A stretch of 64,000 bases of DNA from Candidatus Woesearchaeota archaeon (lineage in GTDB: Archaea; Nanobdellota; Nanobdellia; Pacearchaeales; UBA284), in the NCBI GenBank assembly GCA_964354405.1, contig CAYGZP010000001.1:15634-79633 (forward strand), in the 5' to 3' direction. The stretch's first letter is position 1, and every line of letters starts with the position of its first letter. The position numbers and the translations under genes were made by a program. Below, piece by piece: positions 8,936 through 62,075 of this stretch. The notes beneath the pieces were generated by a model. It saw only the letters and a program-made list of their open reading frames with translations, ran no database searches and was not told where the DNA came from.

Positions 8936-8936
8936 G

Positions 8937-11753: not shown

Positions 11754-11792
11754 TTAACCCCTCGTCAGTGACAAACCAAAAAGTTTAAATAT
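11754..11792 (+). promoter_or_regulatory. conserved upstream element A, copy 3
   Basis: TTAACCCCTCGTCAGTGACAAACCAAAAAGTTTAAATAT, about 30 nt upstream of the 11821 start. Confidence 0.55.
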
Positions 11793-11820
11793 CTCTTTAT
11801 CTTATAAATCATATCGAAAA

Positions 11821-22520: not shown

Positions 22521-23399
22521 ATGGACTTGATAATATTGAGCGACATCTTGTTGTTTTCCATAGCTTTCGCGTTCTTGATATTCGCCTCGATAACCGACAT
22601 AAAGCGGCGAGAGGTTCCAAACTGGCTTTGTTTCTCATTGATCGCGATTGCTTTCTCCATAAGAATTCTTGCTTCAGTCCTAACATCCCAATTTTCATAC
22701 TTGTTTTATGCAATAATCGCCTTCATACTTTTCTTCATTCTCGCTAATGTGCTTTATTATGCAAAATTCTTCGGCGGGGGGGATGCAAAGCTCATTATGG
22801 CATTGGCGATTGTCTTCGCGACAACTCCCTCTTTCATAATAGCATCATCTTTAGAACTTTTCCAGGAGCCATTTCTCCTAAGTTTCCTGATAAACATTTT
22901 CTTCTTGGGCTCGGTTTACAGCATTTTCTTCATAATATTCTTCGCGATAAAAAATTATAGGAGCCTCAAAACAGAAATAAAAAAAATGTGGAAAAAAAGC
23001 AAGACAATGCGGATAATCTTTCTTGTTCTTGCTATAATCTCTCTTGCATTGACATATTTCTCAACACTATTTCTTCTATTCCCTGTAATCATCTTGCTGT
23101 TCCCTCTTCTCTATATTATAGTCAAGGCAACTGAGAACTCGTGCATGATAAAACTTGTCTCTCCGCGAGAACTGACAGAAGGTGACTGGCTTGTCGGTAA
23201 AATTAAAATGGGCAAAAAAATCATCAAGCCAAGCGTCCATGGCCTAAGCTCTCAAGACATCGCAGCATTAAGAAAAGCAAACAAAAAAGTTCTGATAAAA
23301 TATGGCATCCCTTTCGTGCCAGTGTTTCTCATCGCGCTTGTAGCCACAGCATTGTTCGGCGATTTGATTGTTCTAATAATCAAGGCATTCTTCTTTTAA
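22521..23399 (+). CDS. type IV prepilin / preflagellin peptidase (A24 family, PibD/FlaK-like)
   Basis: Catalytic Asp motifs ITDIKRREVPNWL and GGGDAKL in a polytopic membrane protein; 292 aa. Confidence 0.6.
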   Translation: MDLIILSDILLFSIAFAFLIFASITDIKRREVPNWLCFSLIAIAFSIRILASVLTSQFSYLFYAIIAFILFFILANVLYYAKFFGGGDAKLIMALAIVFATTPSFIIASSLELFQEPFLLSFLINIFFLGSVYSIFFIIFFAIKNYRSLKTEIKKMWKKSKTMRIIFLVLAIISLALTYFSTLFLLFPVIILLFPLLYIIVKATENSCMIKLVSPRELTEGDWLVGKIKMGKKIIKPSVHGLSSQDIAALRKANKKVLIKYGIPFVPVFLIALVATALFGDLIVLIIKAFFF

Positions 23400-33352: not shown

Positions 33353-36300
33353 TTAAACCTTTAATCTGACTAAAGTTGCTTTAGGATCTGTTTCTCTGTA
33401 TCTTTTTAATTGGGTATAACAGATATTTCCTTGCGCGTTCACTAAAGTTCCCTTTTGTGTAGATGGACCATCTACCAAACAAGTACTGGAAGTATAAGTA
33501 ATATCATCCTCCCAATCAATCGCATTGTTTCCATTATCATCAACAAAAACCAATGCATGGTCATACTCCCTCTTATTCTCATTGTACAAAAACAAAACAT
33601 AAAACTCATCTCTGAACAGGATAGCTCTAGAGACAATTTCAGAAACTTTCATTAATCTTATCTCTTCACCAGTACCAATATCTTTCACAACCTCAACATT
33701 GCTGCTCGCAAGAAGTGTGGGGATACTATCAGATGGGAAGCTCTTGCCAAAGGCCTTTTCAGCAGCTATCGCAACAAGCGAATAACATTCCATTCCTTTG
33801 TAGAGATAATTAATGGACTTTCCATTTTCGGCATTAGGAGTTCTACCTACAAAAGGAACATTTTTGAAAGCCTCCATTTCAGCAACAAGAGGATTTGCAT
33901 TAGTGGATTTCCTGCTAACTTTCAAAACATTCTCTATTCCAACATCATATGCAGATGATTCAAGATAATTATTATTAATTTTGCCAGGTGAAGAAACAGT
34001 GCTTGAGTCTAGTGTAATATCCGCACGATACCAATAACTCCCGACAGCACTATTCGCATTAATACACCAACCATCTCCCGAGATGCTCGTCTCATCATAT
34101 TTTATAGGAACGATCCCATTATAGACATCATCCCCATCATAATACGCCTGAATAGGATAAATATTAAACCATTTTATTGAAGCGTCGCCAGAATATTGTT
34201 TCATTTTTTTGTTTCCTACAGTTAAACTCTCGCCCGAATAATAATCATTTCCCATCTTCACAACAGCACATATTTTAACACTATCTCCATAATTAATCTC
34301 AGGCCCATATCCCTTTTCTCTTTCAATTATATTAAAACTGCCACCATTATTAACACTATAAACAAGAGAAACACTTCCTGCCTGCGGTTGCAATTCTTGT
34401 AACCTTGTTGCAATTCTCCCCAGTAAAACATCAGCATTGCTTAAACTTGCTCTGTTGTTTTCAATCAAAAGTTTCAATGAATTCAAATCTTCAATCGACA
34501 TTGTGTTCAATGATAGCATTTTTTTCTGAAGCGCATCATTGATGCTCTGACATTTGCTCTCGAACCACAAGCAAGCCAAAGAGCACTCGTTCTGCTCGCA
34601 ATCTTGCTGCGTTTTAAAAACAAGATCATTTTCAGCAGGAGCATTTCCACCAAACACATTCCCTATATATTCTATAACTCCTATCCCTTTTGTGTCACCT
34701 TCACATTTGTTAGGGCAGTTCTTACAATTATTATACTTAGAATCCCACCAGCATCCCGATGCTGTATCACAGTTTGTTTTAGTTTTTTGATCCTCGCATT
34801 TCTTTCCTTCCTCTTTCACAACTTTTTCTCTGACTCCAAGTTGCTGATAAACATCCTGACAGTTCTTAGGAGTGCATTTTGAGCCAACATATTTTGTCCT
34901 GTCCGCTTCACTGAAGAAACACAATGGATCTTTAGCACAATCTTGAGTATCACATCCTACTCTTATCTCTAAATGTAAATGATCTCCCTCACTATATCCT
35001 GTGTTATCTGCTTCGCCAAGCTTGTCCCCTGCTTTTACAATATCATCTTTCTTAACTCTCACACTGCCTGTTTTCATATGTCCATAAAATGAGTAAACTT
35101 TTTCTTTTCCAATCTCATGTTCTATTGTAACATAATTTCCATAGCCCGTTCCTTTCGTGCCCATCTCAATCTCATTATTTTCTGCATCAATAACTTTTCC
35201 AGGCGCAACCGCAAGAATAGAAGTTCCCTTAGCAGCATTGATATCTAATCCCTTATGTTCATGTAGTTTTGGTCTCACTCTTTCATATCCAAAACAGCTT
35301 CCTGCGCCAAGAACCCCAACTTGAGGAACAGGCCACATGAATTCGAGCTCTTGAATCTTGACTATTTCTCTGCAGCATTTTTGTCCAGGATGCTCGGAAG
35401 AATCGCTGGGATTGGTTATCCACTCGTAATCTGTAGGGCATGTCACAACAGTCATCCACTTTCCCCCTTGCCCAACAACACATTTATCGCCCGCTTCCAT
35501 CTTCATCTCAGTCTGATAAACCTCTCTCGAAGCATAGAGCTTTGCCTTCAAATCATAAAGCTTTGCTATCGAGAACTCTGCGCGGGCTTTCTCATCTGCT
35601 CTCGCGCATCTCGCGCTTATCTGCTTGAAATCATAAGACAATGAATCAATCTCTTTAGCAATCTCACCAATCTCTGTATCAAGCTGAACTTTCACAGTTT
35701 TCAAATCTTCTACTTTGTAATTTCTGACTTCTGTGATGAACGCATTTACTTTATTTTCAATTGTCTGAAGCTTCGGCTCCAAATTATCCAATTCAATTTG
35801 GCTTTGTGCTGGCGCGCTCAAATTATACTTGTCTATTGCCCATGCAATATCTTTTTGATCTGATTCATTCACTATATTTGCGCGGATTCCTAAATCGCTC
35901 ACAGATTCATTGACAGAATTCATGTCAAGCCAGCATCCAACATCTTTGTTGTCGCAATAACCTATTCTCTTGTATCTCTCTGTCTGCTGTACTGACTCTC
36001 CTGGGTTTCGCGAAGAGCATATTCTTACAATTCCTCTCTTGTATATCTGCGGTTCAAGAGAACTTTCAACATAACTCTGGATGTTTAATGTCGCTGTTGG
36101 AATAATTGATGGAGTGCCACTCACGCATTCTTTGGCTGTCTCAACTGGATTATCGAGTTGATTTTGCAAATAAACATTCTGTAATTCATTCACAGCAAAA
36201 TTAGTCGATGCCTGTCCAAACCCACAAATCTCTTGCTGATTGATTCTAATGCAAATTTCTTTATAGCCGCTGGGGGCAGTGAAATCAGGCGAGATGCTTA

Positions 36301-39300
36301 GATACTGCCCTACTCCCAAGTATCCATAGCCATCTTTTACAAGATATTCTTCTGGGATAAACTGTTCATAATATCCTGATTTTGCTGGGCGTCTCAAATA
36401 TATTGAGTAATAAGCTCCCTGGTCATTTCCTGCAAATATGTAAGCAAAGACTTTGTAATGTGAGTCAGGAGATGCTCCTCCCATTGGAATCTCATCGAAC
36501 CATGCAGTTGCCTGTGTAGGAGACTCGGGCTTTGACAATTCATCCAAGAGATTAGACTGAGTAGGATATGTAGTTGAAACAAATTTCTTGCACACCTCAC
36601 TTCCAATCTGTCCTGTGCTTCTTGCTTTGAACGCATTGAAAGAGTTCAGCGCATAATAATCTGTGAAGTAACGAGCAGCATTTACTGATTGTTTCCATGA
36701 TTCAGAAAACAAAGCATACTCTCCTCCCCCTCTTGATGTTAACGATTCCGTAATCGCGGGAATTCCTGCCTTCAAAAAAGGATCTAATTGCTTCCAGAAG
36801 AACTCGCACATATAAACTGATGTTATCTGATCACAAATTCCAACTGTCTTGCCGCTCTTCAATTGTTCTTGCAGACAATCTCTCCCTGATTTCATTATTC
36901 CGATAAAACTATCAATGCCAGCATGGACTCCTGTCAAGCATATAGGAACTATAACACCCTTGCCATTATCAAAATTAGGCAAGCATAGGAGCAATGAACC
37001 CACAACTCCAGTTTGTACAACATCTTCAACAGGCATTCTCCCGCCGAAGTCGCATCTCGATGCAGGACACATCACAGGGTCGCATAAGTTATACATCAAC
37101 TTACAGTCACTCGCGCTCATGAAATCCTCGCATTGCGCAGAAGCTGTCGAGACAGGCGGTTTTCCAAGAGTATAATCGCCACAACTGGTGTGAATTTTTC
37201 TGTTTCCTGCCGCGAACTCGCGAATTGCTTCTGCCGAGCACTTTTTAGCTTTGTTAATCAAGTTCGAAGAACATCCAGGAGTAATGCAGCCCGCGATTTC
37301 TGGAACATTTCCTGTAGCCAACACAACTTGAGTGCAGCAATCATCTCCTAATGGCCCTGAACTATAATCAAAATTAGGCAAACCATCTACTCCAACATTA
37401 CAAATCCAGAAAGTGTTGATATCTCCACTCTCTTTCCAAGCAGCCATCGCACCTTCCAAGCCTGAGTAGCTTGTTGTCGCAACATACCATCCAGCTCTCG
37501 CGTCAACCGGCATCCATGCCACGAATCCTTCATAAACTCCAGACTCCCAGAACTTAATCTCGCTTCTGTGGGGAGTTTTAATCTCATTGTTGTTGCATAA
37601 AGTTATGTCGACTTCTTCGATATCAGGAACATTTATCTCGCGCAATCTTTTTTCAAGCGAAGGTTCTGTCAATGAGTTATAAAACTTTTGGACATTCCCA
37701 TCGCCATCAATCTTATACAATCTGTTGATAGTGAACTTGTGCTCTGCAGCAGAATCAACAACAGCGATGTAATAAGCTCCAAGATATGAGAAGGCGCTAT
37801 ATCTATCTCCAGCTAAAATTTGAGGATGAGTTCCAAATTTAATCTTATTAATGAAATTCAAATCAGCTCGATACACCTGTGCTTTCAATGACTGTGATTG
37901 TTGTGGCCTTGCAACAGTCGGACTAATCCCAAACTTGCTTGAGAACGCGCTCAATGTATTCAAATCTTTCACTTGTTCAGCTGTCTCTGCCAATGTTCCA
38001 TAACCTCCCTTGATTTTTTCCTGGCATATCGCTGAGTTGGCAATCTCACTCTGGCTTTTTCCCGAGCATTGCTTATAAATATCCAAATCCAAGACAATAT
38101 TCTTGACATCATCTTTGAACAATCTTCCGCTGCTGTAAAGTGTTGAGAAATTTCCCGCTATGTTTTCAGAATTAACAACATTATTCAATATCTTTGCGGT
38201 TTTGCTTTTATCCACGCTCGGCTTTGCTTCGAGCAATTTACTGATATTCGCATATGTAACCCCCTCGAACTCAATTGCTCCATCACCTAAAATAATCCGC
38301 CGCAATTCTTTTTGCTCATATACTTTTATTCCTTCCAGTTCCTGAGGAAAGTTCTTCTCAGCTTCTTCCATGAACTTTTCATCATTTACTGTTTTGCTTA
38401 ATCCAAGCAATCCCCCCGTGGTTGTAACTCCATTCTTCGATTTCACATCGCTGATAAACTTGTTTGTCTTGCTCAATGAGTTTTGAACCAATTCTATATC
38501 ATTATTAATCTCTTTTTCTTTGATTCTGTAACAATCCGAAATGCTCTTGGCATTGATGCCCTGTCTGTAAACTGAATCCGAGCATCTTTGAGTCCAAGGT
38601 TTCATGACAATTTTTCTTGCATATGCCTCGCCACTCAATCCCGAAACAAAATTCTTTATCCATAACACCCCCGCTCCAACCTGACAGACTTTCTTCCATG
38701 TTGTTACAATCTTTCCCAAATTATCGCGGATTTTTTCCAAGCTCGCTATGTTCTTGTTGAGTTTCTCTATAAGCTCGTTAGTTTTCTCAGGAGTAAGTTT
38801 AATAGCTCGCTTTTCAATTCCTATCGCAACTGTAAAATTAGTTATTGTTTCTCTTTCCTTTTCAAAAGGCAACACAGTAACTTTGACTTCTTTTTTTAGT
38901 GTTGTGCTTAAAAGTCTTACTTTAGTGCCGCTGAAGTACTGCCACGAGCCCGCTGCTAATGTAACTTCATTGTTTGTAAGATTTTTCAACCTAATACTTG
39001 TGTCATCTATCTCGCTTACGACCCAATCTCCAATTGTATCATCAACTGTGATTGTTGCTTTAGTATCATTCAACTCAACCTGAGCTTCCTTAGTCCCCAA
39101 ACCTGGCTTCTCAATTGAAATAAGCTCGATATGATAACTTCCGCTCGGCCTTGTCATTGAAACGCTTCTGTCGCCTGCGCCCGCAACAGCTCTTCTTAAT
39201 TCTTCTCTCGCGTTCTCAACTTCGCCGATAATCTCTGGCTCATCGCTCTGCGAATATTTATTAATCAGTTCTGTCAAGATTTCAGCCTGGTCAAGTTTTT

Positions 39301-40963
39301 TATGCATGCTCGAAGCCAAATCAGCTGCGTTGTGCAGCGCGATTACTCCATAATAAGTTCCTTGGGGCGAAGGCTGGTTAGCATAAGCAAATGCAACATC
39401 TCGCCATTTCTGTTTTGCCCCTTTGTACATGTCTTCAATATCTTTTGTGTAATAAATCTGTTCAGGTCCAGTTACAGAGATAATCTTGAACGGTACAGAT
39501 AAACTTCCTACATTCAAATCCAAATCCAACTTGGTTTTTCTTGCATAAAACTCCAAACCTTGCGCATAATTTTGGTTCTTGAACAACTCTTTCATCTCAG
39601 TAATCCATTGAGACTGTGCCATGACATTGAGCTCCAAGTTCACTCCCCTCTTGCTCTTGATATATTCGTGGATTCTGCTGACAATCTTCTCTTTATCTTT
39701 AGGATCAATTAAAACATACTCTTTGCTTCGAGAAAACAAAATCATGAAATCTGTGAATCCTTCATTAGTGTATTCTTTTCCTATAAATCCAACATAAAAG
39801 TGTTTTTGAGAATTATCTTTGTTAATCATAATATCGGTTCCTACAGTTGCTGTAACAGTTCTTGCATCAGGATCCTTGACTTCGATTTGGGCTTCATAAT
39901 CTTTTATTGTCAAAGTTTTGAAGCTCCCGACACACTTTATATCCGCACTGCCGCCATAACTTGAACTTGAGATAATATTGTTTATTTCGCATCCCGAATC
40001 CAATAATGGCTCACTGTTTCCAAGCAAGAGTTCATTTCCATTTACTAACACTCGCGCCCTGGTTGTAGGAACAGTTATTTCATCTAATCTCAACTTTAAT
40101 CCAGCCCCGCAATAAAATCCAGGCAACATTATTTCATCTCTTATTGTAGGATCTACTCCTTCGCGAAGTTCAACTGTTTTTATAGGCGCAGAGTTAGGAC
40201 TGGTGTAAACTGATATCTTCGCAGAACTTAATCCAGTAATCTCCTGCAATTTCAAATAGCCTTTTCCTTTCCAGAATCCAAACTCTTTATATCTCAAACT
40301 CCACTCCCCACTGTCCAACAAAGGCAAGACAAACTGATTCTCATTAATCCCGAAAGTCCGAGCGATGTCATATCTTATCTTCACAGACATATTTGCGATG
40401 ACTTTATCAGGCATTTTGTCTTCGCTGGGCTGCTGTTTTAACTGTATCCAAAGATAACCAAGATTATTCATCGTGGGCAATCCTTCAAATCCCGCTTTTT
40501 TCTGTTCAGCTGGCGCATAATAACTCAGGGCAGCACGGGCAGGCAAGAAATTCACGAATCCAATCTCATTTGATTTGTTCTCGACAACAGGGACAATGCT
40601 TTTGATATAAGGCACCTGGATGAGAGGATTGATTTTGATTCCTGTCATCCTGCAAAGCACAGGAACATCCTGCTCCTCTAACAAATCGCTTCTTACAACA
40701 GCAGGCGAGCAAGCAGCAGGATCAATCAAAACAAGGAAATCCATTCCTGATTTGTTGCAATAATCCGCGCTCCAAGAACTTTGAGTCCAAGGATTTACAG
40801 TATCTGTAGGATAAAGATAATTAGTGTTAGTGTTCGAAAGAGTTTGTCCAAGCTCAGCAGCAGTCATTTGAGCATGAACCCCAACAGCTCCGACAGCCAA
40901 GAAAATGAAAAGCGCAAATGCTATGATTATGCCCACGCCAAATCTTTTTTTATTAAATTGCAT
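33353..40963 (-). CDS. giant (2536 aa) secreted protein containing an M23 (LytM/lysostaphin-like) metallopeptidase domain
   Basis: N-terminal signal peptide. M23 signatures HEHKGLD(INAAKGTSILAVAPGKV), GYGNYVTIEHE and GDHLHLEI are encoded at about 34950-35300. Cys-rich and coiled-coil regions lie elsewhere. Confidence 0.7.
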   Translation of the reverse strand: MQFNKKRFGVGIIIAFALFIFLAVGAVGVHAQMTAAELGQTLSNTNTNYLYPTDTVNPWTQSSWSADYCNKSGMDFLVLIDPAACSPAVVRSDLLEEQDVPVLCRMTGIKINPLIQVPYIKSIVPVVENKSNEIGFVNFLPARAALSYYAPAEQKKAGFEGLPTMNNLGYLWIQLKQQPSEDKMPDKVIANMSVKIRYDIARTFGINENQFVLPLLDSGEWSLRYKEFGFWKGKGYLKLQEITGLSSAKISVYTSPNSAPIKTVELREGVDPTIRDEIMLPGFYCGAGLKLRLDEITVPTTRARVLVNGNELLLGNSEPLLDSGCEINNIISSSSYGGSADIKCVGSFKTLTIKDYEAQIEVKDPDARTVTATVGTDIMINKDNSQKHFYVGFIGKEYTNEGFTDFMILFSRSKEYVLIDPKDKEKIVSRIHEYIKSKRGVNLELNVMAQSQWITEMKELFKNQNYAQGLEFYARKTKLDLDLNVGSLSVPFKIISVTGPEQIYYTKDIEDMYKGAKQKWRDVAFAYANQPSPQGTYYGVIALHNAADLASSMHKKLDQAEILTELINKYSQSDEPEIIGEVENAREELRRAVAGAGDRSVSMTRPSGSYHIELISIEKPGLGTKEAQVELNDTKATITVDDTIGDWVVSEIDDTSIRLKNLTNNEVTLAAGSWQYFSGTKVRLLSTTLKKEVKVTVLPFEKERETITNFTVAIGIEKRAIKLTPEKTNELIEKLNKNIASLEKIRDNLGKIVTTWKKVCQVGAGVLWIKNFVSGLSGEAYARKIVMKPWTQRCSDSVYRQGINAKSISDCYRIKEKEINNDIELVQNSLSKTNKFISDVKSKNGVTTTGGLLGLSKTVNDEKFMEEAEKNFPQELEGIKVYEQKELRRIILGDGAIEFEGVTYANISKLLEAKPSVDKSKTAKILNNVVNSENIAGNFSTLYSSGRLFKDDVKNIVLDLDIYKQCSGKSQSEIANSAICQEKIKGGYGTLAETAEQVKDLNTLSAFSSKFGISPTVARPQQSQSLKAQVYRADLNFINKIKFGTHPQILAGDRYSAFSYLGAYYIAVVDSAAEHKFTINRLYKIDGDGNVQKFYNSLTEPSLEKRLREINVPDIEEVDITLCNNNEIKTPHRSEIKFWESGVYEGFVAWMPVDARAGWYVATTSYSGLEGAMAAWKESGDINTFWICNVGVDGLPNFDYSSGPLGDDCCTQVVLATGNVPEIAGCITPGCSSNLINKAKKCSAEAIREFAAGNRKIHTSCGDYTLGKPPVSTASAQCEDFMSASDCKLMYNLCDPVMCPASRCDFGGRMPVEDVVQTGVVGSLLLCLPNFDNGKGVIVPICLTGVHAGIDSFIGIMKSGRDCLQEQLKSGKTVGICDQITSVYMCEFFWKQLDPFLKAGIPAITESLTSRGGGEYALFSESWKQSVNAARYFTDYYALNSFNAFKARSTGQIGSEVCKKFVSTTYPTQSNLLDELSKPESPTQATAWFDEIPMGGASPDSHYKVFAYIFAGNDQGAYYSIYLRRPAKSGYYEQFIPEEYLVKDGYGYLGVGQYLSISPDFTAPSGYKEICIRINQQEICGFGQASTNFAVNELQNVYLQNQLDNPVETAKECVSGTPSIIPTATLNIQSYVESSLEPQIYKRGIVRICSSRNPGESVQQTERYKRIGYCDNKDVGCWLDMNSVNESVSDLGIRANIVNESDQKDIAWAIDKYNLSAPAQSQIELDNLEPKLQTIENKVNAFITEVRNYKVEDLKTVKVQLDTEIGEIAKEIDSLSYDFKQISARCARADEKARAEFSIAKLYDLKAKLYASREVYQTEMKMEAGDKCVVGQGGKWMTVVTCPTDYEWITNPSDSSEHPGQKCCREIVKIQELEFMWPVPQVGVLGAGSCFGYERVRPKLHEHKGLDINAAKGTSILAVAPGKVIDAENNEIEMGTKGTGYGNYVTIEHEIGKEKVYSFYGHMKTGSVRVKKDDIVKAGDKLGEADNTGYSEGDHLHLEIRVGCDTQDCAKDPLCFFSEADRTKYVGSKCTPKNCQDVYQQLGVREKVVKEEGKKCEDQKTKTNCDTASGCWWDSKYNNCKNCPNKCEGDTKGIGVIEYIGNVFGGNAPAENDLVFKTQQDCEQNECSLACLWFESKCQSINDALQKKMLSLNTMSIEDLNSLKLLIENNRASLSNADVLLGRIATRLQELQPQAGSVSLVYSVNNGGSFNIIEREKGYGPEINYGDSVKICAVVKMGNDYYSGESLTVGNKKMKQYSGDASIKWFNIYPIQAYYDGDDVYNGIVPIKYDETSISGDGWCINANSAVGSYWYRADITLDSSTVSSPGKINNNYLESSAYDVGIENVLKVSRKSTNANPLVAEMEAFKNVPFVGRTPNAENGKSINYLYKGMECYSLVAIAAEKAFGKSFPSDSIPTLLASSNVEVVKDIGTGEEIRLMKVSEIVSRAILFRDEFYVLFLYNENKREYDHALVFVDDNGNNAIDWEDDITYTSSTCLVDGPSTQKGTLVNAQGNICYTQLKRYRETDPKATLVRLKV
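34950..35300 (-). other. M23 peptidase domain within the giant protein (approximate bounds)
   Basis: HxxxD and HxH zinc-ligand motifs in the correct order and spacing. Confidence 0.65.
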
Positions 40964-40976
40964 TTTGGTTTTTTGT

Positions 40977-42833
40977 TTATTTCAGTTGAATATTAACTTG
41001 GCTCGCGCCAATCAAGCTATAAATTTCTATCAGATCATTCAAGTTTGCAGGAATGCTGGAAGTCTCCGCGACAAGGCTGATTTTGCTCTTGCCTTTCAAA
41101 TCAGACTCGGTAACAAAAAATTGAGCTTGACCGCCGCCGAACAGAACATTTGTGAAAGATTGCTGAGGTACATCTAGCTCATAACACTGCTCTTGCATCT
41201 GTCCCATCATTCCGCCGATTCCTTCAACAGGAATCTTGACACAAGTCTCTCCTTTCTGTGCTCCAATCGTGATACTGGCTTCTTTATAGACATAAACTGT
41301 AACATTATAATTTCCCTCACTCAAATTAATCTTTTTCTGTTCAGGATAATATATCGATGAACTCGAACCCTGCGAACTGAAACTAATCAAAGCATACTCG
41401 CCTTGTCTCAAGTTAGGCATTTCAACATCTAACTCGTGTGTAGGGGCCAAAAACATGTTTAACACAACTGGTTCTGTAGTTGTGAACATAAGCCTAGATT
41501 CCTTGAATCCTTGAGCTTTCGCGATAATGAATCCGTTGTAGCATTGAGGAACTAAAGTCTCGAGTTTTGCCTTGCCCTCTATCATTTTTGTTCTGCCTAA
41601 GTTGCACACTTGGTTGAAACATTTGAATGAAACATCAGCCTCGACAGGCACAGAGTTCTCATCATAGCTAAAAATCTTTGCTTCTTGTGTTTTATAGTTG
41701 CATATATCAAACTCAACTTCACTAGACTCTGAAACTGTGGCGTTTCTTGCAACACTTTTATCTATAACAACAACTGTCGCGAACTGGAACAATTCGCCGT
41801 TCTTGTTCAACTGCACAACAACTGGATAATAAACATCATAGACAAAATGATAAGGAACATAACATAATCCAACCATTCCTAAAATTCCTAAACCTTCCTG
41901 CATTCCTATTGGTTCGGCTTTCATAATCTCTCCTTCAGTTGGCCATACTTCAATTCTCGAGTTCCACGCAGGAACATACAAGAAATATGCATTTGATGAG
42001 ACAGTTCCAACATCAACTTCAAAATATTTGTTCTCTGGCTTCGCCAAACTGTAATCGCTTCCCTTGACTTTCAGCGCAGCAATATTTCCTTCTAGCGCGC
42101 TCTTCAATTCCTGTTTAACCTCACTTACTTGCCAAATCTTGGGCGCACAGCTTAGCTCAATATCATCAACAGGCGCATAGAGCCTCAAAACATCGACAGA
42201 ATAATTCTCCAAGAACAAAGTTTTTTGCTCAGCTGTGAAAATTTTACCCGCATCATTGTAAAGCGCGCCAAAATTGCTCTTGGTCGTAATTTTGTGATTA
42301 GTTATCACAATACTTTGTTCATCCCAAGCCATTTTAATTGCCCACGCAACATTTGTTTCAATGCTCGAGCCCTTAATCTTTACATCAACAGCGGGCTCTC
42401 CGCTAATTTCAATTTGATAACCTTCTGATTTTATTGAAGTAAAATCACATTCCTTCACACTCTCGCTCAAATAATTTTCAAACTCGCTCTCGATGCTTGC
42501 AAGTGAGGGTTTTCTTTCTCTCGCGAGATTATTTCCCGAAACATAGAACCAGTAAGGGACTGACATTCCAAGATAATTCAACTGATTCGAGAAAGGCATG
42601 TACTCTGAGCCAGCTTCAAACTCCGGCATATCAATATAACCGCCCTGCATGCCCGCGATCTGGCTTGCTTCTTTGACTTTCACATCAACACAATCTTTAA
42701 AATAGTTCTCAGCAGGCTGCAGTTTTGAAGGCACAGTTACTTGTGGTTTTAGAAATAGGAAGGCTAAGAGAGCGAAAGCTACTATAACTATCGCTATAAT
42801 TATAAATAAAGTAACCTGTGCCTTCTTCTGCAT
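40977..42833 (-). CDS. 618-aa secreted protein with pilin-like (class III-type) N-terminus
   Basis: N-terminus MQKKA/QVTLFIIIAIVIVAFALLAFLFL resembles archaeal prepilin signals. Stop is 14 nt upstream of the giant protein start (same strand, probable operon). Confidence 0.45.
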   Translation of the reverse strand: MQKKAQVTLFIIIAIVIVAFALLAFLFLKPQVTVPSKLQPAENYFKDCVDVKVKEASQIAGMQGGYIDMPEFEAGSEYMPFSNQLNYLGMSVPYWFYVSGNNLARERKPSLASIESEFENYLSESVKECDFTSIKSEGYQIEISGEPAVDVKIKGSSIETNVAWAIKMAWDEQSIVITNHKITTKSNFGALYNDAGKIFTAEQKTLFLENYSVDVLRLYAPVDDIELSCAPKIWQVSEVKQELKSALEGNIAALKVKGSDYSLAKPENKYFEVDVGTVSSNAYFLYVPAWNSRIEVWPTEGEIMKAEPIGMQEGLGILGMVGLCYVPYHFVYDVYYPVVVQLNKNGELFQFATVVVIDKSVARNATVSESSEVEFDICNYKTQEAKIFSYDENSVPVEADVSFKCFNQVCNLGRTKMIEGKAKLETLVPQCYNGFIIAKAQGFKESRLMFTTTEPVVLNMFLAPTHELDVEMPNLRQGEYALISFSSQGSSSSIYYPEQKKINLSEGNYNVTVYVYKEASITIGAQKGETCVKIPVEGIGGMMGQMQEQCYELDVPQQSFTNVLFGGGQAQFFVTESDLKGKSKISLVAETSSIPANLNDLIEIYSLIGASQVNIQLK

Positions 42834-42938
42834 TTGGCTAGCCTCTTTTCTTCTATCTAGATTTTTGGAAAAGGAAAAAAGATTATATAAATCTTCTTCT
42901 ACGTCGTCTTCTCTGCTTTTCTCTATTTCTGCGCTATG

Positions 42939-43283
42939 TTAAAACTTGAAAACGTCTCCAAATTTGCCCACTACAGGCAATGGAGCTTTCTTGCCGCTTA
43001 ATGCGTTGATTACTCCAAGTATCCACAACACAACTAATCCAAGCCAGATTATTGTGCCGATTATCCATCCAATAACTGGGATAAATGCCAAAATTACCCA
43101 GAGTATCCATGCAATTATCCATGTAATGAATAAAACAAGTCCTTGTTTGGCATGGTAGATACTGAAATCTCCTCTCTCGCTCTTAGTGGCCAGAACAATT
43201 ATCGGGCCAATAAGTGGGAGTAAATAACACAAAAACGCAAAAAGCTTTTCATCGTCGCTTCCTTTTTTTGCTTTTTCAGCCAT
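42939..43283 (-). CDS. DUF4870-family small membrane protein
   Basis: LCYLLPLIGPII...FSIYHAKQG signature; 114 aa with 2-3 TM helices. Confidence 0.45.
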   Translation of the reverse strand: MAEKAKKGSDDEKLFAFLCYLLPLIGPIIVLATKSERGDFSIYHAKQGLVLFITWIIAWILWVILAFIPVIGWIIGTIIWLGLVVLWILGVINALSGKKAPLPVVGKFGDVFKF

Positions 43284-47930: not shown

Positions 47931-49067
47931 TTGTTTTTCTGTTTCATGTTCAGCTTTTTAAAGAAAAAGATAAAGGAATTCATCACAGGAACGAAGCAAG
48001 AGTTGGCAGAAGAATCAAAAGTTGAGGAAAAAGAACTTAAGCAAGAGATTAAAGAGACAGAAAAAGAAATAGAAGAAGTCAAAGAAGAGATTCAAGAGTT
48101 GAAACAGGAAGAGAAAGGAGAGCGAGATGTTGAAGAAAGAGTAGAAGAAAAGACAGAAGAAGTTGAAGAGGAGAAAGCTCTTGAGGAGAAAAAAGGCGGA
48201 TTATTCTCAAGATTGAAAAAAGTCTTTGTATCAAAAAAGCTTGGCGATGATGAGTTCAACAAGTTTTTCAATGGACTCGAGACAATCCTCATAGAGAACA
48301 ATGTTGCTCTCGAAGCCATTGATGCTCTACGAGTAAAACTCAAGCAAGAACTTGTCAACAAGGAGATTTCTCGCAAGGATTGGGAAAATAAAATTGAAAC
48401 TGCGCTCAAAAACGCAATTTCTTCATTATTGCTCGAGCCTTTTGACTTAATTTCAAAAATAAAACAATCAGAAAAGCCATTTGTAATAGTTTTTTTCGGA
48501 ATAAATGGAAGCGGCAAGACAACAACTATAGCTAAAGTCGCGCACATGCTCAAGCAAAACAAAATAACTAGTGTCTTGGCAGCCAGCGATACATTCCGAG
48601 CAGCAAGCATAGAACAGCTGGAGAAACATTCGAGCAAACTTGGGGTTGAAGTCATTAAACAAAAATACGGAGCAGACCCTGCTGCAGTTGCTTTCGATGC
48701 AATTGCTCATGCAAAATCCAAGGCAATTGATGTTGTGCTTGTGGATACGGCAGGAAGAATGCACACAAAAGCAGACTTGTTGAGAGAGATGGAAAAAATT
48801 GTCCGCGTCACCAAGCCATCATTGAAAATTTTTGTTGGCGAGGCCATAACCGGCAATGATGCTGTAGAACAGGCGCGCTCATTCAACAACACAATTGGCA
48901 TCGACGCTGTTATCTTGACAAAAGCAGATGTAGATGAGAAAGGTGGGGCCACAATAAGTGTGAGTTATATAACAAAAAAGCCTATCTTGTTCCTTGGAAT
49001 GGGCCAGGAATATAGCGACTTAAAAAAATTCGACAAGAAAGAGATTCTTAAGCAATTGTTCGGCTGA
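47931..49067 (+). CDS. ftsY: signal recognition particle receptor FtsY
   Basis: Acidic/KE-rich N-terminus, and NG domain with GINGSGKTTTIAK, DTAGR and TKAD. Confidence 0.8.
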   Translation: MFFCFMFSFLKKKIKEFITGTKQELAEESKVEEKELKQEIKETEKEIEEVKEEIQELKQEEKGERDVEERVEEKTEEVEEEKALEEKKGGLFSRLKKVFVSKKLGDDEFNKFFNGLETILIENNVALEAIDALRVKLKQELVNKEISRKDWENKIETALKNAISSLLLEPFDLISKIKQSEKPFVIVFFGINGSGKTTTIAKVAHMLKQNKITSVLAASDTFRAASIEQLEKHSSKLGVEVIKQKYGADPAAVAFDAIAHAKSKAIDVVLVDTAGRMHTKADLLREMEKIVRVTKPSLKIFVGEAITGNDAVEQARSFNNTIGIDAVILTKADVDEKGGATISVSYITKKPILFLGMGQEYSDLKKFDKKEILKQLFG

Positions 49068-49749
49068 GATAGTGATCTTTAGGAACAATCTTACCATCCT
49101 TCATCCTGATTATCTTGTCAGCATGTTCCGCAATATCCATATCATGTGTCACAACAATGACTGTCGCTTTTTTCTTCAATGCCACGAGCAGCTGCATAAT
49201 CTCGTGGCCTGATTTTGAGTCCAGATTTCCAGTTGGCTCATCCGCGATTATGAGAGATGGCTCATTCACCAAAGCTCTTGCTATAGCAACTCTCTGTTGC
49301 TCGCCGCCCGATAATTGATTAGGAAAATGATTTGCCCTGTGCTCTAACCCCATAATCTTCAAGAGTTCCAAAGCTCTTGTTCTCCTCTCTTTTTCAGAAA
49401 CTCTAGCAATTGTCAAAGGCAATTCAACATTCTCGACTGCCTTCAGAATGGGATGCAAATTAAAGAACTGAAAGATAAATCCTATTTTTTTATTTCTTAA
49501 TTTCGCGAGTTTATTGTCATCAAGTTTGGATGTATCCACCCCATCTAAGTAAATTTTTCCCTTGGTTGGCTTGTCAAGACAACCCATTAAATGTAACAAA
49601 GTGCTCTTGCCACAGCCGCTTGGCCCGACAATCGCCGTGATTTTATTCCTGTGGATTCCAAAAGTGATATCATCAACTGCTTTGACAGTGACTTCCTCAT
49701 CTCCGTAAATCTTGCTCAAGTTCTTAGCATGCAAAACATAATTTTCCAT
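49048..49749 (-). CDS. ABC transporter ATP-binding protein (MacB/LolD-like)
   Basis: Walker A GPSGCGKST, signature LSGGEQQRVAIARAL, Walker B IIADEPTGNLD. Confidence 0.8.
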   Translation of the reverse strand: MENYVLHAKNLSKIYGDEEVTVKAVDDITFGIHRNKITAIVGPSGCGKSTLLHLMGCLDKPTKGKIYLDGVDTSKLDDNKLAKLRNKKIGFIFQFFNLHPILKAVENVELPLTIARVSEKERRTRALELLKIMGLEHRANHFPNQLSGGEQQRVAIARALVNEPSLIIADEPTGNLDSKSGHEIMQLLVALKKKATVIVVTHDMDIAEHADKIIRMKDGKIVPKDHYLSRTIA

Positions 49750-49817: not shown

Positions 49818-51062
49818 TTACTCGTAACGCAACGCTTCTACAGGTTGTAGGTTCGCAGCTCTTCTGGCGGGGAATATCCCAGAGATTATCCCAATTCCAA
49901 CTGAAAACGCGAGTGCAAAAAATATTAATCCAGGTGTTATTGAAACCATTGTCGCGCCTCCAAGGTGTGAGCTCACAAGTAACATTGCTGCAATCTGCCC
50001 GATTATTCCAGATATCACAAATCCCACGAGCAATCCAAGGATTCCTCCGACAAGCCCGATTAATGCAGATTCAACAAGGAACAAATTCATCACATCTTTG
50101 TTAGTCATGCCGAGTGCTTTCAAAATTCCTATCTGCCTTGTTCTCTCTGTGACCGAAGTGAACATGGTATTCGCGATTCCGACAGCTCCGACAACTAATG
50201 ATATCGCAGCAATTCCATAAAGGAACATATTGATTGTCCCAAGAATTCCCATCACGATTTCTTGAAGCATCTTAGGCGTATAGAGAGAAAAATCAAGAGT
50301 CTCCTCAGTAACATGTCTTGATATCATTAATCTCTCTTTGATTTTTTCCGCGATTTCATCTGTTCTTTCTTGTTCAACTTGAATCTCAATAGCATAATAA
50401 TTGTCCACTCCGAATCCCCCAGAATATGGTTCTGCATCATCAAGAGAAAGATAAACTGATTGATCCTCATTTGCGCCGCCCATACCTCCAATCTCATTTA
50501 TTATTCCTATAACTCGGAAAGATTCATTTTCTATTTTAATCTGCGAGCCCAAATAAATCTCTTTATCAAAAGCTTCTTTCGCAACTTTATTCCCCAGAAC
50601 CACAACTCCGCTGTCTCCCTTAGAAAGAAACCTTCCAGATTCCATCGAGACACTTTTTTCTCGCACCTTCGCCCAATTCTCATCAGTGCCCATCAGATAA
50701 AGATTCTTGGTCTCATCAAGATATTCGACATCGACAAAACCAAATAAATCCGGCGCGACATATAGAACTCCCTCAACAGATTTTATAATTTCGATATCAT
50801 TATCATCTAACTCTCCTGGTTCTTTGGCAAAACTTTGCCCTCCGAAACCCCCGCTAAAAGAAGAGCCCGCCATAACATAAACTTGGTTGCTGCCTAGCGC
50901 ACCAAGTTGATTAGAAATGACCCCTTGCATCCCCTGCCCGACAGAAACTATCGCGACAATTGACGCTACTCCGATAATAACCCCAATAATCGTAAGCCAG
51001 CTTCTCAGTCCTCTCGTGGTTAGATTATTCAAGGCAAATTTTAGTGAATCTGTAAATTTCAT
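49818..51062 (-). CDS. ABC transporter permease, FtsX/MacB-like
   Basis: N-terminal TM, large extracytoplasmic domain, then 3 C-terminal TM helices (FtsX fold); 414 aa. Confidence 0.7.
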   Translation of the reverse strand: MKFTDSLKFALNNLTTRGLRSWLTIIGVIIGVASIVAIVSVGQGMQGVISNQLGALGSNQVYVMAGSSFSGGFGGQSFAKEPGELDDNDIEIIKSVEGVLYVAPDLFGFVDVEYLDETKNLYLMGTDENWAKVREKSVSMESGRFLSKGDSGVVVLGNKVAKEAFDKEIYLGSQIKIENESFRVIGIINEIGGMGGANEDQSVYLSLDDAEPYSGGFGVDNYYAIEIQVEQERTDEIAEKIKERLMISRHVTEETLDFSLYTPKMLQEIVMGILGTINMFLYGIAAISLVVGAVGIANTMFTSVTERTRQIGILKALGMTNKDVMNLFLVESALIGLVGGILGLLVGFVISGIIGQIAAMLLVSSHLGGATMVSITPGLIFFALAFSVGIGIISGIFPARRAANLQPVEALRYE

Positions 51063-59838: not shown

Positions 59839-60216
59839 ATGAATAAGAAAGCTGTTGAGATGAATGTGAACACAATAATTATAGTGATTCTTGCGATACT
59901 TGTTCTAGTGATTTTGGCTTTATACTTTACAGGAGGTATGACTAATCTTTGGCAAAAGATAACACCAATAGCTCCAAGTTATGATGTCGGCGATATCACA
60001 AGAGCAAAACAGTTCTGTGCGACTTTATGTTTGAGCAACGACAAAATTTCTTATTGTAACTATGTTGCGGCATTGCCAAAGAAAGATGCGCAAAACAAAA
60101 CAGTAGGGACAGATAATAAGCATTGCTGGGAATCTCCTATAAAAGCTTACCAAGAAGCTGAATGTAAAAATGTTGGCTTCGACGACCCAGAATTTTGTAC
60201 AGCTCCGGCAGAATAA
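59839..60216 (+). CDS. prepilin-like protein (class III signal peptide)
   Basis: MNKKA/VEMNVNTIIIVILAILVLVILALYF; Cys-containing globular domain; 125 aa. Confidence 0.5.
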   Translation: MNKKAVEMNVNTIIIVILAILVLVILALYFTGGMTNLWQKITPIAPSYDVGDITRAKQFCATLCLSNDKISYCNYVAALPKKDAQNKTVGTDNKHCWESPIKAYQEAECKNVGFDDPEFCTAPAE

Positions 60217-60479: not shown

Positions 60480-61571
60480 ATGGATAAAAGAGGCATTCTC
60501 TTAAAGCAGATAATAGAAATCTTAATTGCTGTTGCGATAGTCGTGATAATAATCATAGCAGCCCAAAGATTCTTCGCAACCTATTTCGGAAATCAAAAAG
60601 ATATGCAGGCAAAAGGGACTCTAGATAAAATAACCCAAATCTTAGGAAATTTGACAGAAGCTGAAACAAAGAGGTATGTGTTACAAAGTCCAGGAGGATG
60701 GTACATTGTAGCTTTCGATGCCCAGCATAATGAAAACAATAAATTCGCAAAGCCACAGAAATATGTTAATCAAAATTTGTTATGCATTTGCGACAAGAAA
60801 TGTTCAATCTGCCAGACAATAGCTCTGCCATTGATGCATAACGAGACTCTTGCATTTGTTAAGATAGGGCTTTCGGATATATGGCTAACAAATGCTAAAA
60901 CATATTACAATATTAGTAAAGTCAAGGCAACTGTTTCATCAACGCTCACAGAACAGGAAAAAACAGAAATTTCATTAAAAACCACAACAACAAATCAAGC
61001 AATAACAAACAATAATTATCAGCCAGCCATCGATTCAGCTGTAAGCAAATATTATCCAGAAGTGAAAGAATATATTGCAAATCAACAAGAATTCGCAAAA
61101 ATTATCAAAGCCATAATCGCAATAGAATCCCAAGGTGTATGGAACGCTGTAGGTAGAGATGGGGAAGTTGGCTTGATGCAGTTGATGCCGCAGACAGCCG
61201 ATGCTCTCGGTTTGAAAATTTATGATCCTGATAACAAATTCACAGGACAGGGATGGAATTTTGTAGACTCGCAATACAGCCAAACCAGTTATTACAACTC
61301 TCTCAAAACTCTTGCATCCTCAAAAACCAAGGCTGAGCTCATAGTGATAGACGAGCGCTTCGACGAAACAAAAAATATAGACGCAGCAACAAAACATTTA
61401 GTCTCATACATCAAACAATTCCAAGATTACGAACTTGCTATCATAGCATTCAACGCCGGAGGCGGCGGGGTAACAAACAACTGTAGGCCCCAAGTCATAA
61501 CAGCCTGCAATGTAAATTTTGACGGTTACAAATATTTCCAGAAAGTAAAAACAGCAATGGAGAGCGCATAA
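60480..61571 (+). CDS. prepilin-like N-terminus fused to a family-1 lytic transglycosylase (SLT) domain
   Basis: MDKRG/ILLKQIIEILIAVAIVVIIIIAA, then IIAIESQGVWNAVGRDGEVGLMQLMPQTA (catalytic E-S and GLMQ motifs) and IIAFNAGGGG (AYNAG-like). Confidence 0.6.
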   Translation: MDKRGILLKQIIEILIAVAIVVIIIIAAQRFFATYFGNQKDMQAKGTLDKITQILGNLTEAETKRYVLQSPGGWYIVAFDAQHNENNKFAKPQKYVNQNLLCICDKKCSICQTIALPLMHNETLAFVKIGLSDIWLTNAKTYYNISKVKATVSSTLTEQEKTEISLKTTTTNQAITNNNYQPAIDSAVSKYYPEVKEYIANQQEFAKIIKAIIAIESQGVWNAVGRDGEVGLMQLMPQTADALGLKIYDPDNKFTGQGWNFVDSQYSQTSYYNSLKTLASSKTKAELIVIDERFDETKNIDAATKHLVSYIKQFQDYELAIIAFNAGGGGVTNNCRPQVITACNVNFDGYKYFQKVKTAMESA

Positions 61572-61678: not shown

Positions 61679-62023
61679 TTACCATTCTTTTATTTTTTTA
61701 ATTTGAGTTATTCTGCCTTTATCGTAATCAATCATAATTTCATAAGCGCCTTTCTCCTTTTCTTTTTGCATAATCAAAAGATGCTTTCCTTTTCCTTCAC
61801 TTTCGCTTTGCTTTTCAAAATGATAATCAATCTTTTGTCCGTCGTCATAAAAAGTTGACATTTCATAAGGATAGTTAGAATATCTAAAGTTTTTAGCACT
61901 ATCCTCCAATTTGCTAACAAGAGAAGGAGAAATATCCTTACTTCCACCACAGCCAATCAAAAAAAGCAATCCAACACCGGCCAAAAGACTTTTTAATTTA
62001 TTTTCAATTGAATTAGTTGTCAT
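61679..62023 (-). CDS. putative lipoprotein
   Basis: Probable start at internal Met (MTTNSIENKLKSLLAGVGLLFLIGC, lipobox LIGC); the ORF-track N-terminal extension up to 62197 is unlikely to be real. Confidence 0.35.
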   Translation of the reverse strand: MTTNSIENKLKSLLAGVGLLFLIGCGGSKDISPSLVSKLEDSAKNFRYSNYPYEMSTFYDDGQKIDYHFEKQSESEGKGKHLLIMQKEKEKGAYEIMIDYDKGRITQIKKIKEW

Positions 62024-62075
62024 GCACTTAATTAAAAAGGAAAGGTTTATTAAATTTATTGTTATTAAAAATACA

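Follow-up and report, generated by a model that had tools for sequence, protein, structure and literature searches.

A giant secreted protein and its pilin-like gene partner, encoded side by side in a 64,000-nucleotide stretch of DNA (the window) from a Pacearchaeota-type (DPANN) archaeon, probably form an extracellular complex that attacks bacterial peptidoglycan. Most likely, this surface complex digests peptidoglycan locally, in attachment or feeding. All members of the giant's family share a Cys-rich scaffold of ~1,700 aa, and the M23 peptidase domain named in the original prediction is a minority variant among the modules that this scaffold carries. The overall reading of the giant in that prediction was supported, with the corrections described below.

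The giant, its partner and their locus

The giant gene (33353..40963, minus strand) encodes 2536 aa plus a stop codon from an ATG start, as given by the ORF list and its translation. Both it and the 618-aa ORF upstream lie where the original prediction had placed them, and one database entry (P0001) is 100% identical to the giant. Because the ORF extends over 7.6 kb of DNA with ~39% G+C and has at least 569 database homologues, it is not a chance ORF. Secretion, also predicted, agrees with a Sec-type signal peptide read from the sequence (aa 1-31; 40871..40963, minus strand), in which KKR is followed by a hydrophobic run at aa 8-29 and a putative cleavage site, VHA/Q. That run is the sole hydrophobic stretch of at least 17 aa in the whole protein, which has a Sec signal but no membrane anchor of its own. 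The coiled-coil and Cys-rich parts were likewise recovered, as modelled helices and as clusters of Cys residues (62 in total) at aa ~1200-1400 and ~2000-2200.

The partner gene (40977..42833, minus strand; 618 aa) is separated from the giant by 13 nt; in each of the 70 testable loci, it lay immediately upstream of the giant and in the same orientation. Its 1239 homologues (610-676 aa) are covered over their full length, and no Pfam or PDB relative of the partner was detected. The N-terminus carries the class III-type, pilin-like signal that had been predicted (aa 1-28; 42750..42833, minus strand), i.e., a short, charged leader, a [KR][GA] cleavage motif and a hydrophobic helix of ~20 aa, beginning MQKKA/QVTLFIIIAIVIVAF (full stretch MQKKA/QVTLFIIIAIVIVAFALLAFLFL), with cleavage presumably at the slash. 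Leaders of 4-30 aa precede this motif in homologues; it is conserved and follows a strict pattern in 88 of 120 of them, with residues Q6, I12 and A14 invariant. Class III signals occur on non-pilus surface proteins too.

A TATA-like box (TTTATATAA; 42883..42891, minus strand), preceded by a purine-rich stretch, was read from the sequence ~50 nt upstream of the partner ATG and may act as the promoter. It falls between the partner gene and a gene for a DUF4870 membrane protein (42939..43283, minus strand; 114 aa; Pfam E=2.8e-11). The latter does precede the partner, as originally noted, but has a homologue in only 3 of 86 loci (L001, L007 and L008, the closest relatives) and is probably outside the conserved unit. 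The locus itself has a fixed position beside the LSM/S8e/TFB core genes, in genomes of 0.65-0.71 Mb; in six annotated loci, small ORFs without annotation come downstream of the giant, and then LSM, S8e and TFB. No phage genes were found near the giant locus.

Elsewhere in the window is a gene for a prepilin (type IV leader) peptidase (22521..23399, plus strand; Pfam Peptidase_A24 at 57 bits, with a cut-off of 26.5 and E=3e-15), which is a candidate processing enzyme for the partner. The "SLT pilin" of the original prediction is also real, i.e., a 363-aa protein (60480..61571, plus strand; Pfam SLT, E=6.7e-18) with a class III-like N-terminus (MDKRGILLKQIIEILIAVAIVV), and is predicted to be a separate glycan-cleaving enzyme of the same genome. 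Neither a pilus assembly ATPase nor a membrane platform was recognized among the ~50 window ORFs scanned.

Conserved scaffold and exchangeable tails

BLASTP alignments with the 120 top homologues covered the N-terminal part of the scaffold (aa 32-1130; 37574..40870, minus strand) in 85-120 cases, and this part had no Pfam, NCBIfam, PHROG or PDB match. The scaffold core (aa 1131-1700; 35864..37573, minus strand), which comprises a beta domain, a Cys-rich segment and a beta sandwich, was covered in all 120 and matched by 1031 cluster representatives at E<=1e-3, 892 of them at E<=1e-30. AF2 was confident for aa 1131-1270 and 1480-1690. The hyper-conserved, partly hydrophobic Cys-rich segment (aa 1272-1480; 36524..37150, minus strand; QCEDFMS..CDPVMCPxSRCD..LCLPNF..) is without known homologue; its alignment contains dense invariant columns, chiefly Cys, Gly and Pro, and its pLDDT is <50. 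A coiled-coil stalk of long helices (about aa 1690-1830; model residues 561-696; 35474..35866, minus strand) joins the scaffold to the payload, and coverage of the 120 top homologues declines along it.

The M23 domain (aa 1902-2007; 34943..35260, minus strand) was confirmed by a PF01551 match of 81.2 bits (cut-off 28.7; E=6.4e-23). The motifs on which the original prediction was based were located at aa 1901-1907 (HEHKGLD), 1940-1950 (GYGNYVTIEHE) and 1993-2000 (GDHLHLEI). The zinc ligands and catalytic His are complete (H1903-x3-D1907, H1962, H1995-x-H1997), the site aligns with HYGVD, YMH and HLH of lysostaphin, and the domain has the LytM beta-sheet fold; NCBIfam equivalogs such as MepM and NlpD gave sub-threshold, domain-level matches only. 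Retention of the ligands across homologues proved partial: they are kept in the giant, P0004, P0009, P0014, P0021, P0030, P0031 and P0037, but others carry TDGID and/or HLD or QLH substitutions. Approximately half of 19 homologue M23 modules have the full ligand set and the rest T, D or Q substitutions; the family's modules span canonical to degenerate.

Beyond the M23 domain lies a small disulfide-rich "knot" (aa ~2045-2140; 34544..34831, minus strand; C..CWWDS..C..CP.KCEG...C.L.C.W...KC), with strands modelled at pLDDT ~85, which is kept across tails with differing enzymes and is present in 22 of 201 giants. It is followed by a second linker, helical or coiled-coil in character (aa ~2141-2191; modelled as helices, model-2 residues 112-162; 34391..34543, minus strand), and an Ig/FN3-like beta-sandwich (aa ~2195-2340; 33944..34381, minus strand). 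The original prediction was correct in naming M23 as payload, but overlooked a second enzyme-type domain at the C-terminus, a cryptic NlpC/P60 fold (aa ~2345-2536; 33356..33931, minus strand; Cys2393, His2469, Asp2483/2486). This region has a papain-like alpha+beta fold. It had no Pfam match to PF00877 or its clan relatives; 16 copies of the module yielded a single Pfam match (Amidase_6, E=0.011), a PDB profile search gave none, and hhalign against the payload NlpC/P60 domains returned a probability of 20% over 12 columns only. Cys2393, which starts helix 364-376 of the model, is invariant in 25 of 25 copies of the module. His2469, within model strand 437-446, is present in 18 of these 25, with Asn or another residue in the other seven, and Asp2483/2486 precede the next strand.

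The family comprises ~1,000 clusters from at least 435 species-level Pacearchaeota/Woesearchaeota genomes, with homologues of 1,735-3,081 aa. For the best 80 of the 435 genome loci, the titles read Pacearchaeota, Woesearchaeota, Nanoarchaeota or "archaeon", with two exceptions, one titled Aenigmarchaeum (L043) and the other "Paceibacterota bacterium", although the latter has a TFB gene. Past the stalk, tails carry M23, SLT, Amidase_3, glucosaminidase, NlpC/P60, GH3, OmpA-like or no recognizable modules, and TPR and ankyrin tails also occur; in every case the Amidase_3, SLT, glucosaminidase, NlpC/P60, GH3 or OmpA module lies at least 180 aa past the scaffold end. SLT is the commonest module on the scaffold (34 of 201 giants in one census, 12 of 70 in another), and many members of the 201-giant census have no lytic module. 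The giant's own tail is common to only ~21-25 of 120 homologues, as against 120 of 120 for the scaffold. Identity to the closest relatives is 73-80% in the scaffold core, 31-53% in M23 and 23-28% in the NlpC-like domain, for which the best matches are carried by more distant scaffolds. The enzymatic payload, singled out in the original prediction as the notable part, is not unique; many peptidoglycan-directed modules of this kind are interchangeable on the conserved scaffold. The payload families, i.e., Amidase_3, SLT, glucosaminidase, NlpC/P60, GH3 and OmpA, are all murein-specific. NCBI already names orthologues of the giant M23 peptidases; Pfam-based annotation under-counts the lytic repertoire, in that the NlpC/P60-fold domain and some SLT-like tails are missed.

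Proposed function and alternative explanations

We propose that the partner is processed by the A24 peptidase of this genome and would fix the giant to the cell surface, serving as a membrane-anchored pseudopilin-like stem or sitting at the tip of a pilus-like fibre; the giant may thus be delivered "on large surface structures", as the original prediction put it. The stalk would offer both peptidases to the sacculus of a neighbouring bacterium, where they could sever peptide cross-links or stems locally, with glycan strands cut by the separately encoded SLT protein. The resulting opening in the wall would permit attachment, contact or the uptake of nutrients. The tail may be the fast-evolving, swappable part, tuned to the wall chemistry of partner or prey, and the role of the scaffold would be independent of the payload. 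Large murein-hydrolase proteins of Pacearchaeota and Woesearchaeota were proposed independently, in published work, to bind and degrade bacterial walls (PMC8204110, PMC9723730).

The same enzymology would serve saprotrophic scavenging, in which a secreted or surface depolymerase digests the peptidoglycan of dead bacteria and supplies an auxotrophic archaeon with amino acids and amino sugars, without attacking live cells or attaching to them. A GH3 (NagZ-like) module of the type usual in muropeptide recycling occurs in some homologues, and dead-cell peptidoglycan has been proposed as an amino-acid source for Pacearchaeota (PMC11537232). We nevertheless consider scavenging unlikely, given that it leaves the conserved 1,700-aa scaffold, the obligatory pilin-like partner and the enzyme-less loci unexplained, and that enzymes used for scavenging tend to be small, freely secreted proteins. 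It is quite unlikely that the complex is an antibacterial weapon or defence which lyses competing or attacking bacteria in the manner of a bacteriocin or polymorphic toxin, with no host use: the locus is single-copy, vertically inherited and situated among core genes rather than in a variable island, a downstream cassette array of alternative tails is absent from the six annotated loci, and many members have no lytic module. These features stand against the bacteriolytic activity of lysostaphin and zoocin A, which are among the closest solved M23 relatives, a layout reminiscent of polymorphic toxins, in which the N-terminal body is conserved and the C-terminal module varies, and the fact that murein hydrolases require no immunity protein in archaea.

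Scaffold and partner are universal whatever the payload, the OmpA-like, TPR and ankyrin tails are binding rather than lytic modules, and several homologue M23 copies are degenerate, all of which would suit a structural role in the archaeon's own surface, as a layer, sheath or fibre, with the murein-hydrolase-like modules acting as adhesins for carbohydrates or peptides, or as remodellers of its own envelope, rather than as cutters of bacterial walls. However, the M23 catalytic residues of the giant are all intact, its NlpC-like Cys and His are present, and the scaffold, with 40-80% identity and an invariant Cys network, is well above usual S-layer conservation; S-layer proteins are usually far less conserved. 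Mur-type genes were absent among the scanned window ORFs, and we know of no murein synthesis in Pacearchaeota-type archaea. An envelope structure of this kind is, on balance, very unlikely. Least credible, and in our judgement highly improbable, is the view that the complex targets an archaeal host, such as a methanogen, at its pseudomurein or a proteinaceous sheath. The specificity of M23 and NlpC/P60 peptidases is unreadable from sequence, but M23 is replaced in homologues by SLT, Amidase_3, glucosaminidase, GH3 and OmpA-like modules, which act on or bind MurNAc-containing murein and are not expected to act on pseudomurein glycan, which is of the beta-1,3 N-acetyltalosaminuronic type. In favour of such a target, the DPANN symbioses characterized so far all involve archaeal hosts, according to PMC8204110.

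Attack on bacterial peptidoglycan remains our preferred reading. We put forward a broader one only tentatively, i.e., that the partner-giant operon might be a lineage-defining, vertically inherited "contact organelle" of Pacearchaeales/Woesearchaeales, its scaffold a new envelope-penetrating or bridging device on a pilin-like stem, and its warheads a record of bacterial, not archaeal, hosts for many of these archaea. If true, this would mean cross-domain episymbiosis or predation of archaea on bacteria, and warhead type (M23, NlpC/P60, SLT, amidase etc.) would predict host wall chemotype. Pacearchaeota and Woesearchaeota rank among the most abundant uncultured archaea and, to our knowledge, have no known host; a universal two-gene surface module whose swappable tips are murein-specific provides the most concrete genomic lead for the idea that they interact physically with bacteria. 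Assays of the excised M23 and NlpC-like domains on chemotype-defined sacculi would narrow the host candidates, while the giant and partner offer specific, conserved antibody or probe targets for enrichment cultures. The ~1,700-aa scaffold, without known fold, is a candidate for structural discovery.

Relation to known systems

The giant family has already been noticed in the literature: PMC8204110 (also PMC9723730, PMC10936187) describes "large murein-like lytic transglycosylase proteins" in Pacearchaeota/Woesearchaeota. As characterized there, fam00969 (PMC8204110) shares with the giant its lineages, a size class up to ~3,000 aa, an extracellular location and a peptidoglycan-hydrolase domain, but has an SLT domain, which the giant lacks, carrying M23 and the cryptic NlpC/P60-fold domain instead. 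Matched by description, fam00969 is very probably the giant's scaffold family. The text available to us on fam00969-type proteins describes SLT alone, with no mention of a scaffold and variable tail, other payloads, a pilin-like partner or a fixed position.

Bacterial M23 peptidases (LytM, lysostaphin, zoocin A, Csd1/Csd2, ShyA; MEROPS M23) share the HxxxD and HxH site, the middle His and the fold, but are bacterial or phage proteins of 130-500 aa, whereas the archaeal domain lies 1,900 residues in, between a coiled-coil stalk and further modules. The giant's C-terminal domain has no sequence-profile similarity to NlpC/P60 proteins (C40: CwlO, LytE, MepS, RipB, endolysin Lys2972, T6SS effector Tse1). 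A conserved N-terminal body with variable C-terminal modules is shared, by analogy only, with polymorphic toxins; their adjacent immunity genes and alternative-tip cassettes had no counterpart in the six annotated giant loci, where neither a conserved immunity-like gene nor an orphan tail cassette was found. The wall-piercing proteins of phages and tailocins (phi29 gp13, the diffocin hub-hydrolase, the cyanophage A4 ejectosome protein and M23-bearing tape-measure proteins) follow a like principle, in which M23 or NlpC/P60 modules sit on a large structural body and digest the target cell's wall locally, on contact. They appear among the structural and PHROG matches through their enzyme domains, to which homology is confined, and the giant gene lies in the chromosome, with ribosomal and transcription genes around it. 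The SPEARE proteins of Nanohaloarchaeota (PMC6642349) and the "Archaeovorins" of Omnitrophota (bioRxiv 10.1101/2023.11.21.568195) are likewise very large, mostly extracellular and multi-domain, and were proposed in those reports to attach to another cell and breach its envelope. Omnitrophota giants implicated in cell-wall degradation also adjoin class III-signal genes (bioRxiv 10.1101/2023.11.21.568195), as does the Pacearchaeota giant. In contrast to both groups, to which it is unrelated in sequence, the giant's family is anchor-less and combines a dedicated partner with murein-specific payloads.

The giant protein, its M23 domain and its partner

The 2,536-aa giant protein is encoded on the minus strand at 33353..40963, and the ORF list and translation place the 618-aa pilin-like protein, hereafter its partner, directly upstream on the same strand (40977..42833), leaving a gap of 13 nt. 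The M23 motifs quoted in the original prediction were found in the giant at aa 1901-1907, 1940-1950 and 1993-2000, and Pfam confirmed a Peptidase_M23 domain at aa 1902-2007 (E=6.4e-23; 81.2 bits against a cut-off of 28.7), with no other Pfam match in the protein. The feature is thus real and had been read correctly. The zinc ligands, whose loss from orthologues had been raised as a sign of degeneration, persist in the window protein itself, and its nearest M23-bearing relative (P0004) keeps all of them. When the best M23 modules of 20 family members were aligned, roughly half had all ligands; the others displayed TDGID and/or HLD or QLH variants, and one was fully degenerate. M23 modules across the family thus range from canonical to probably non-catalytic, and the giant's own domain, judged by its intact active site, looks catalytically competent.

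The partner has at least 1,239 homologues, the top 120 of which are 541-676 aa long (all but one 610-676) and align at 39-70% identity over 87-100% of its length (most 93-100%). All ten of its Cys residues are at least 95% conserved. No Pfam domain was detected in it, and a PDB profile search returned nothing credible. Its N-terminus reads MQKKA|QVTLFIIIAIVIVAF; in the homologues, a leader varying from 4 to ~30 aa precedes a fixed core, [KR][AG]-Q-V-T-[LIF]-F-[IV]-I-[IL]-A. A class III (prepilin) signal for cleavage by an A24 peptidase would show this pattern, which bears out the class III-like N-terminus predicted for the 618-aa protein. A Peptidase_A24 prepilin peptidase identified by Pfam at 22521..23399 (plus strand) bears on the processing of the partner and of other class III-like proteins. 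The latter include a plus-strand cluster at 59839..60216, 60480..61571 and 62022..62981, none of which fits the strict partner-type motif; the middle protein (363 aa) carries an SLT lytic transglycosylase domain behind an N-terminus similar to that of the partner.

By tblastn, the partner was found upstream of the giant and on the same strand in 70 of 70 loci with room for it, and in six annotated loci it reaches into, or almost up to, the start of the giant. A TATA-like TTTATATAA, preceded by a purine-rich stretch, is located ~50 nt before the partner ATG; the 13-nt gap has no room for a TATA-like element, and the stop codon of the giant is followed by an oligo-T run. Partner and giant thus make up the conserved unit. 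A DUF4870 gene, which the original prediction placed before this pair, is indeed present upstream; however, it is probably not an operon member, since it recurs only in the three closest loci and the TATA-like box intervenes.

A common scaffold with modular tails

A full-length search with the giant retrieved at least 569 proteins, the top 120 of which all had E<1e-222 and lengths of 1,735-3,041 aa, and the closest of which carry the name Candidatus Pacearchaeota. By BLASTP coverage, aa ~50-1700 are common to essentially all of these 120; coverage drops over aa 1700-1850, and the sequence beyond aa 1850 is shared by only ~21-25 of them. The scaffold core (aa 1131-1700), used as query in an exhaustive HMMER search, matched the representatives of 1,031 clusters defined at 50% identity (892 with E<=1e-30), and it always lies ~1,000-1,750 residues into proteins of ~1,800-3,100 aa. 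Species-representative genomes contained at least 435 confirmed loci, and 78 of the best 80 locus titles name Pacearchaeota, Woesearchaeota, Nanoarchaeota/Nanoarchaeia or simply "archaeon". The two exceptions are a record titled Aenigmarchaeum (L043) and one titled "Candidatus Paceibacterota bacterium" (L070, DAOTCN010000002.1), the latter of which has partner and giant with an archaeal TFB gene beside the operon; this MAG is probably mislabelled. The family is thus large, compact and lineage-restricted.

The most sequence-conserved stretch of the family, aa 1272-1480 (36524..37150 in the window), is nonetheless the one that AlphaFold modelled worst (pLDDT <50, long helices). A new fold or a conformationally dynamic segment could account for this, as could too shallow an alignment, the AF2 input alignments being shallow at 30 sequences. 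In one homologue, P0318, an SLT-like module was observed inside the N-terminal scaffold (aa 655-803) and not in the tail.

In all 120 homologues the scaffold stops somewhere between residues 1490 and 1783, and a tail of 121-1,343 aa follows. In seven tails scanned with Pfam, all modules begin at least 180 aa past the scaffold end, i.e., after the coiled-coil stalk. They comprise a sub-threshold M23 with Amidase_3 (P0002), two M23 with SLT (P0015), glucosaminidase with NlpC/P60 (P0019), NlpC/P60 (P0034), an OmpA-like module (P0041), SLT with Amidase_3 (P0045) and SLT with GH3 (P0104). Bacterial murein is the substrate of every enzyme family recognised in the tails and the ligand of the OmpA-like module. 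A census seeded with the Pfam-verified segments and covering 201 giants of at least 1,700 aa detected SLT in 34, M23 in 27, Amidase_3 in 14, glucosaminidase in 13, OmpA-like in 5, NlpC/P60 in 3 and GH3 in 2, many giants having combinations; 126 had no recognised module. These counts are a lower bound, because two "empty" tails hold SLT-like E-S...G-x-M-Q motifs, one scoring 19.9 bits against a cut-off of 21.3. Amongst 70 complete ORFs from species-level genomes, 22 had a recognised module and only 3 had M23. At locus L004 (12905..14836), which shares record CP070794.1 with L010 and belongs to a 648-kb genome, the giant has a length of only 2,300 aa. The ORF next to it (643 aa, with a faint M23 match) resembles a payload that was detached by a frameshift or by genuine gene fission.

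The window protein ends in a module of ~360 aa that 25 of the 120 homologues also have at their very C-terminus, whichever enzyme precedes it. The AF2 model of aa 2030-2536 (pLDDT 81.2, pTM 0.67) starts with a small disulfide knot, continues through a helical linker and an Ig-like sandwich, and closes with an alpha+beta domain. In this model Cys2393, invariant in 25 of 25 copies, sits at a helix N-terminus, and His2469, kept in 18 of 25, lies on the next core strand and is followed by Asp2483/2486, giving a predicted papain-like arrangement. The terminal domain was invisible to sequence methods (Pfam, PDB profile search, hhalign), and Foldseek returned no significant match for the whole multi-domain model; we therefore take the NlpC/P60-type fold as shown by the model, and catalysis as probable rather than proven.

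The window protein and its closest relatives (P0002-P0009) are 73-80% identical over the core, but the figure is only 31-53% for M23 and 23-28% for the NlpC-like domain. The best NlpC-like matches (34-36% identity; phmmer E 1e-51 to 1e-68) occur in proteins with only 48-55% core identity, whose enzyme is a glucosaminidase or in which none is recognised. Such a contrast would agree with an exchange of modules, with a fast-diverging business end, or with both.

Genomic setting

The pair is surrounded in the window by archaeal housekeeping genes (S8e, TFB, tRNA-intron endonuclease, eIF2-alpha, GINS, S3Ae and SRP54); together with the names of the closest homologues, these mark the organism as a DPANN archaeon of the Pacearchaeota type. 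Every annotated locus has LSM, S8e and TFB no more than a few kb from the pair, irrespective of which payload (M23, glucosaminidase, amidase, SLT) the giant carries and even when it carries none. Two annotated loci are on chromosomes that are complete or nearly so (648 and 711 kb), of which a 9.5-kb operon would make up ~1.3-1.5%. Rather than a mobile island, the partner-giant locus is part of the vertically inherited core, with its 3' end remodelled in place. A phage or tailocin origin of the giant was rejected, since PHROG matches fall only within its M23 domain and housekeeping genes surround it.

Bacterial FtsEX-type transporters activate coiled-coil M23 or NlpC/P60 hydrolases, and a MacB/FtsX-type ABC transporter pair is encoded ~7 kb from the giant operon (49048..49749 and 49818..51062, minus strand). 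A link by analogy with FtsEX-EnvC was dropped, because the transporter is not syntenic in related loci. The second giant secreted protein of the window (1935 aa; 12822..18629, minus strand) was likewise discarded as a paralogue; it has no BLASTP similarity to the first and is a NosD/right-handed beta-helix repeat protein. Elsewhere, a 5-kb span contains three paralogues of the class-I Tyr/Trp-type tRNA synthetases (PF00579): an overlapping tandem pair (6796..7896 and 7886..8935, plus strand) and a third gene at 10723..11703 (minus strand). G+C content is 0.27-0.30 across 4001..12000, compared with 0.36-0.42 in the rest of the window; possible explanations for this stretch are an island, a duplication of recent date and a join made in assembly. 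A 330-aa ORF at 11821..12813 (plus strand) gave a sub-threshold match to Por_Secre_tail, the bacterial T9SS C-terminal sorting domain (24.8 bits; cut-off 27), an odd match in an archaeon.

Proposed function and known systems

The giant is a secreted, disulfide-rich and anchor-less protein that bears, past its coiled-coil stalk, an M23 domain whose active site is intact, as well as the modelled NlpC/P60-fold domain; its partner is obligatory and has a prepilin-type signal. We propose that the partner may anchor or present the giant at the surface or on a fibre, that the giant's peptidases would cut peptide cross-links or stems in the sacculus of a neighbouring bacterium, and that the separate SLT protein would cut the glycan strands, with attachment, envelope breaching or feeding as the putative purpose. 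Rival readings see the giant as a scavenger of debris, a means of antibacterial defence or a structural envelope protein, or take pseudomurein as its target. The main weakness of the wall-cutting reading is that about two thirds of the family have no recognisable lytic module, so that the scaffold must have some other role, whether in binding, in bridging or in a function residing in aa 1272-1480, the hyper-conserved segment that was modelled poorly. The giant sharpens a testable hypothesis, that of bacterial hosts for DPANN archaea.

That such archaeal giants bind and degrade bacterial walls is proposed by Castelle et al. (PMC8204110), and the proposal is repeated by Vigneron et al. (PMC9723730) and in PMC10936187 and PMC11537232. 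In NCBI, orthologues already go by "M23 family metallopeptidase" or by "peptidoglycan DD-metalloendopeptidase family protein". Neither the M23 annotation nor the occurrence of giant murein hydrolases in this group of archaea is therefore new. The literature searched held no description of a common scaffold with interchangeable tails spanning all murein bond classes, of the cryptic NlpC/P60-fold module, of a universal pilin-like partner or of the pair's fixed core-genome position.

In function, the giant system can be likened to phage and tailocin wall-piercing proteins, although homology to these is limited to the enzyme domains, and to polymorphic toxins, although the six annotated giant loci have neither immunity nor cassette genes; it thus belongs to neither class. 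Parallels are offered by the giants of Omnitrophota, which adjoin class III-signal genes much as the giant adjoins its partner (bioRxiv 10.1101/2023.11.21.568195), and by the SPEARE proteins of Nanohaloarchaeota (PMC6642349).
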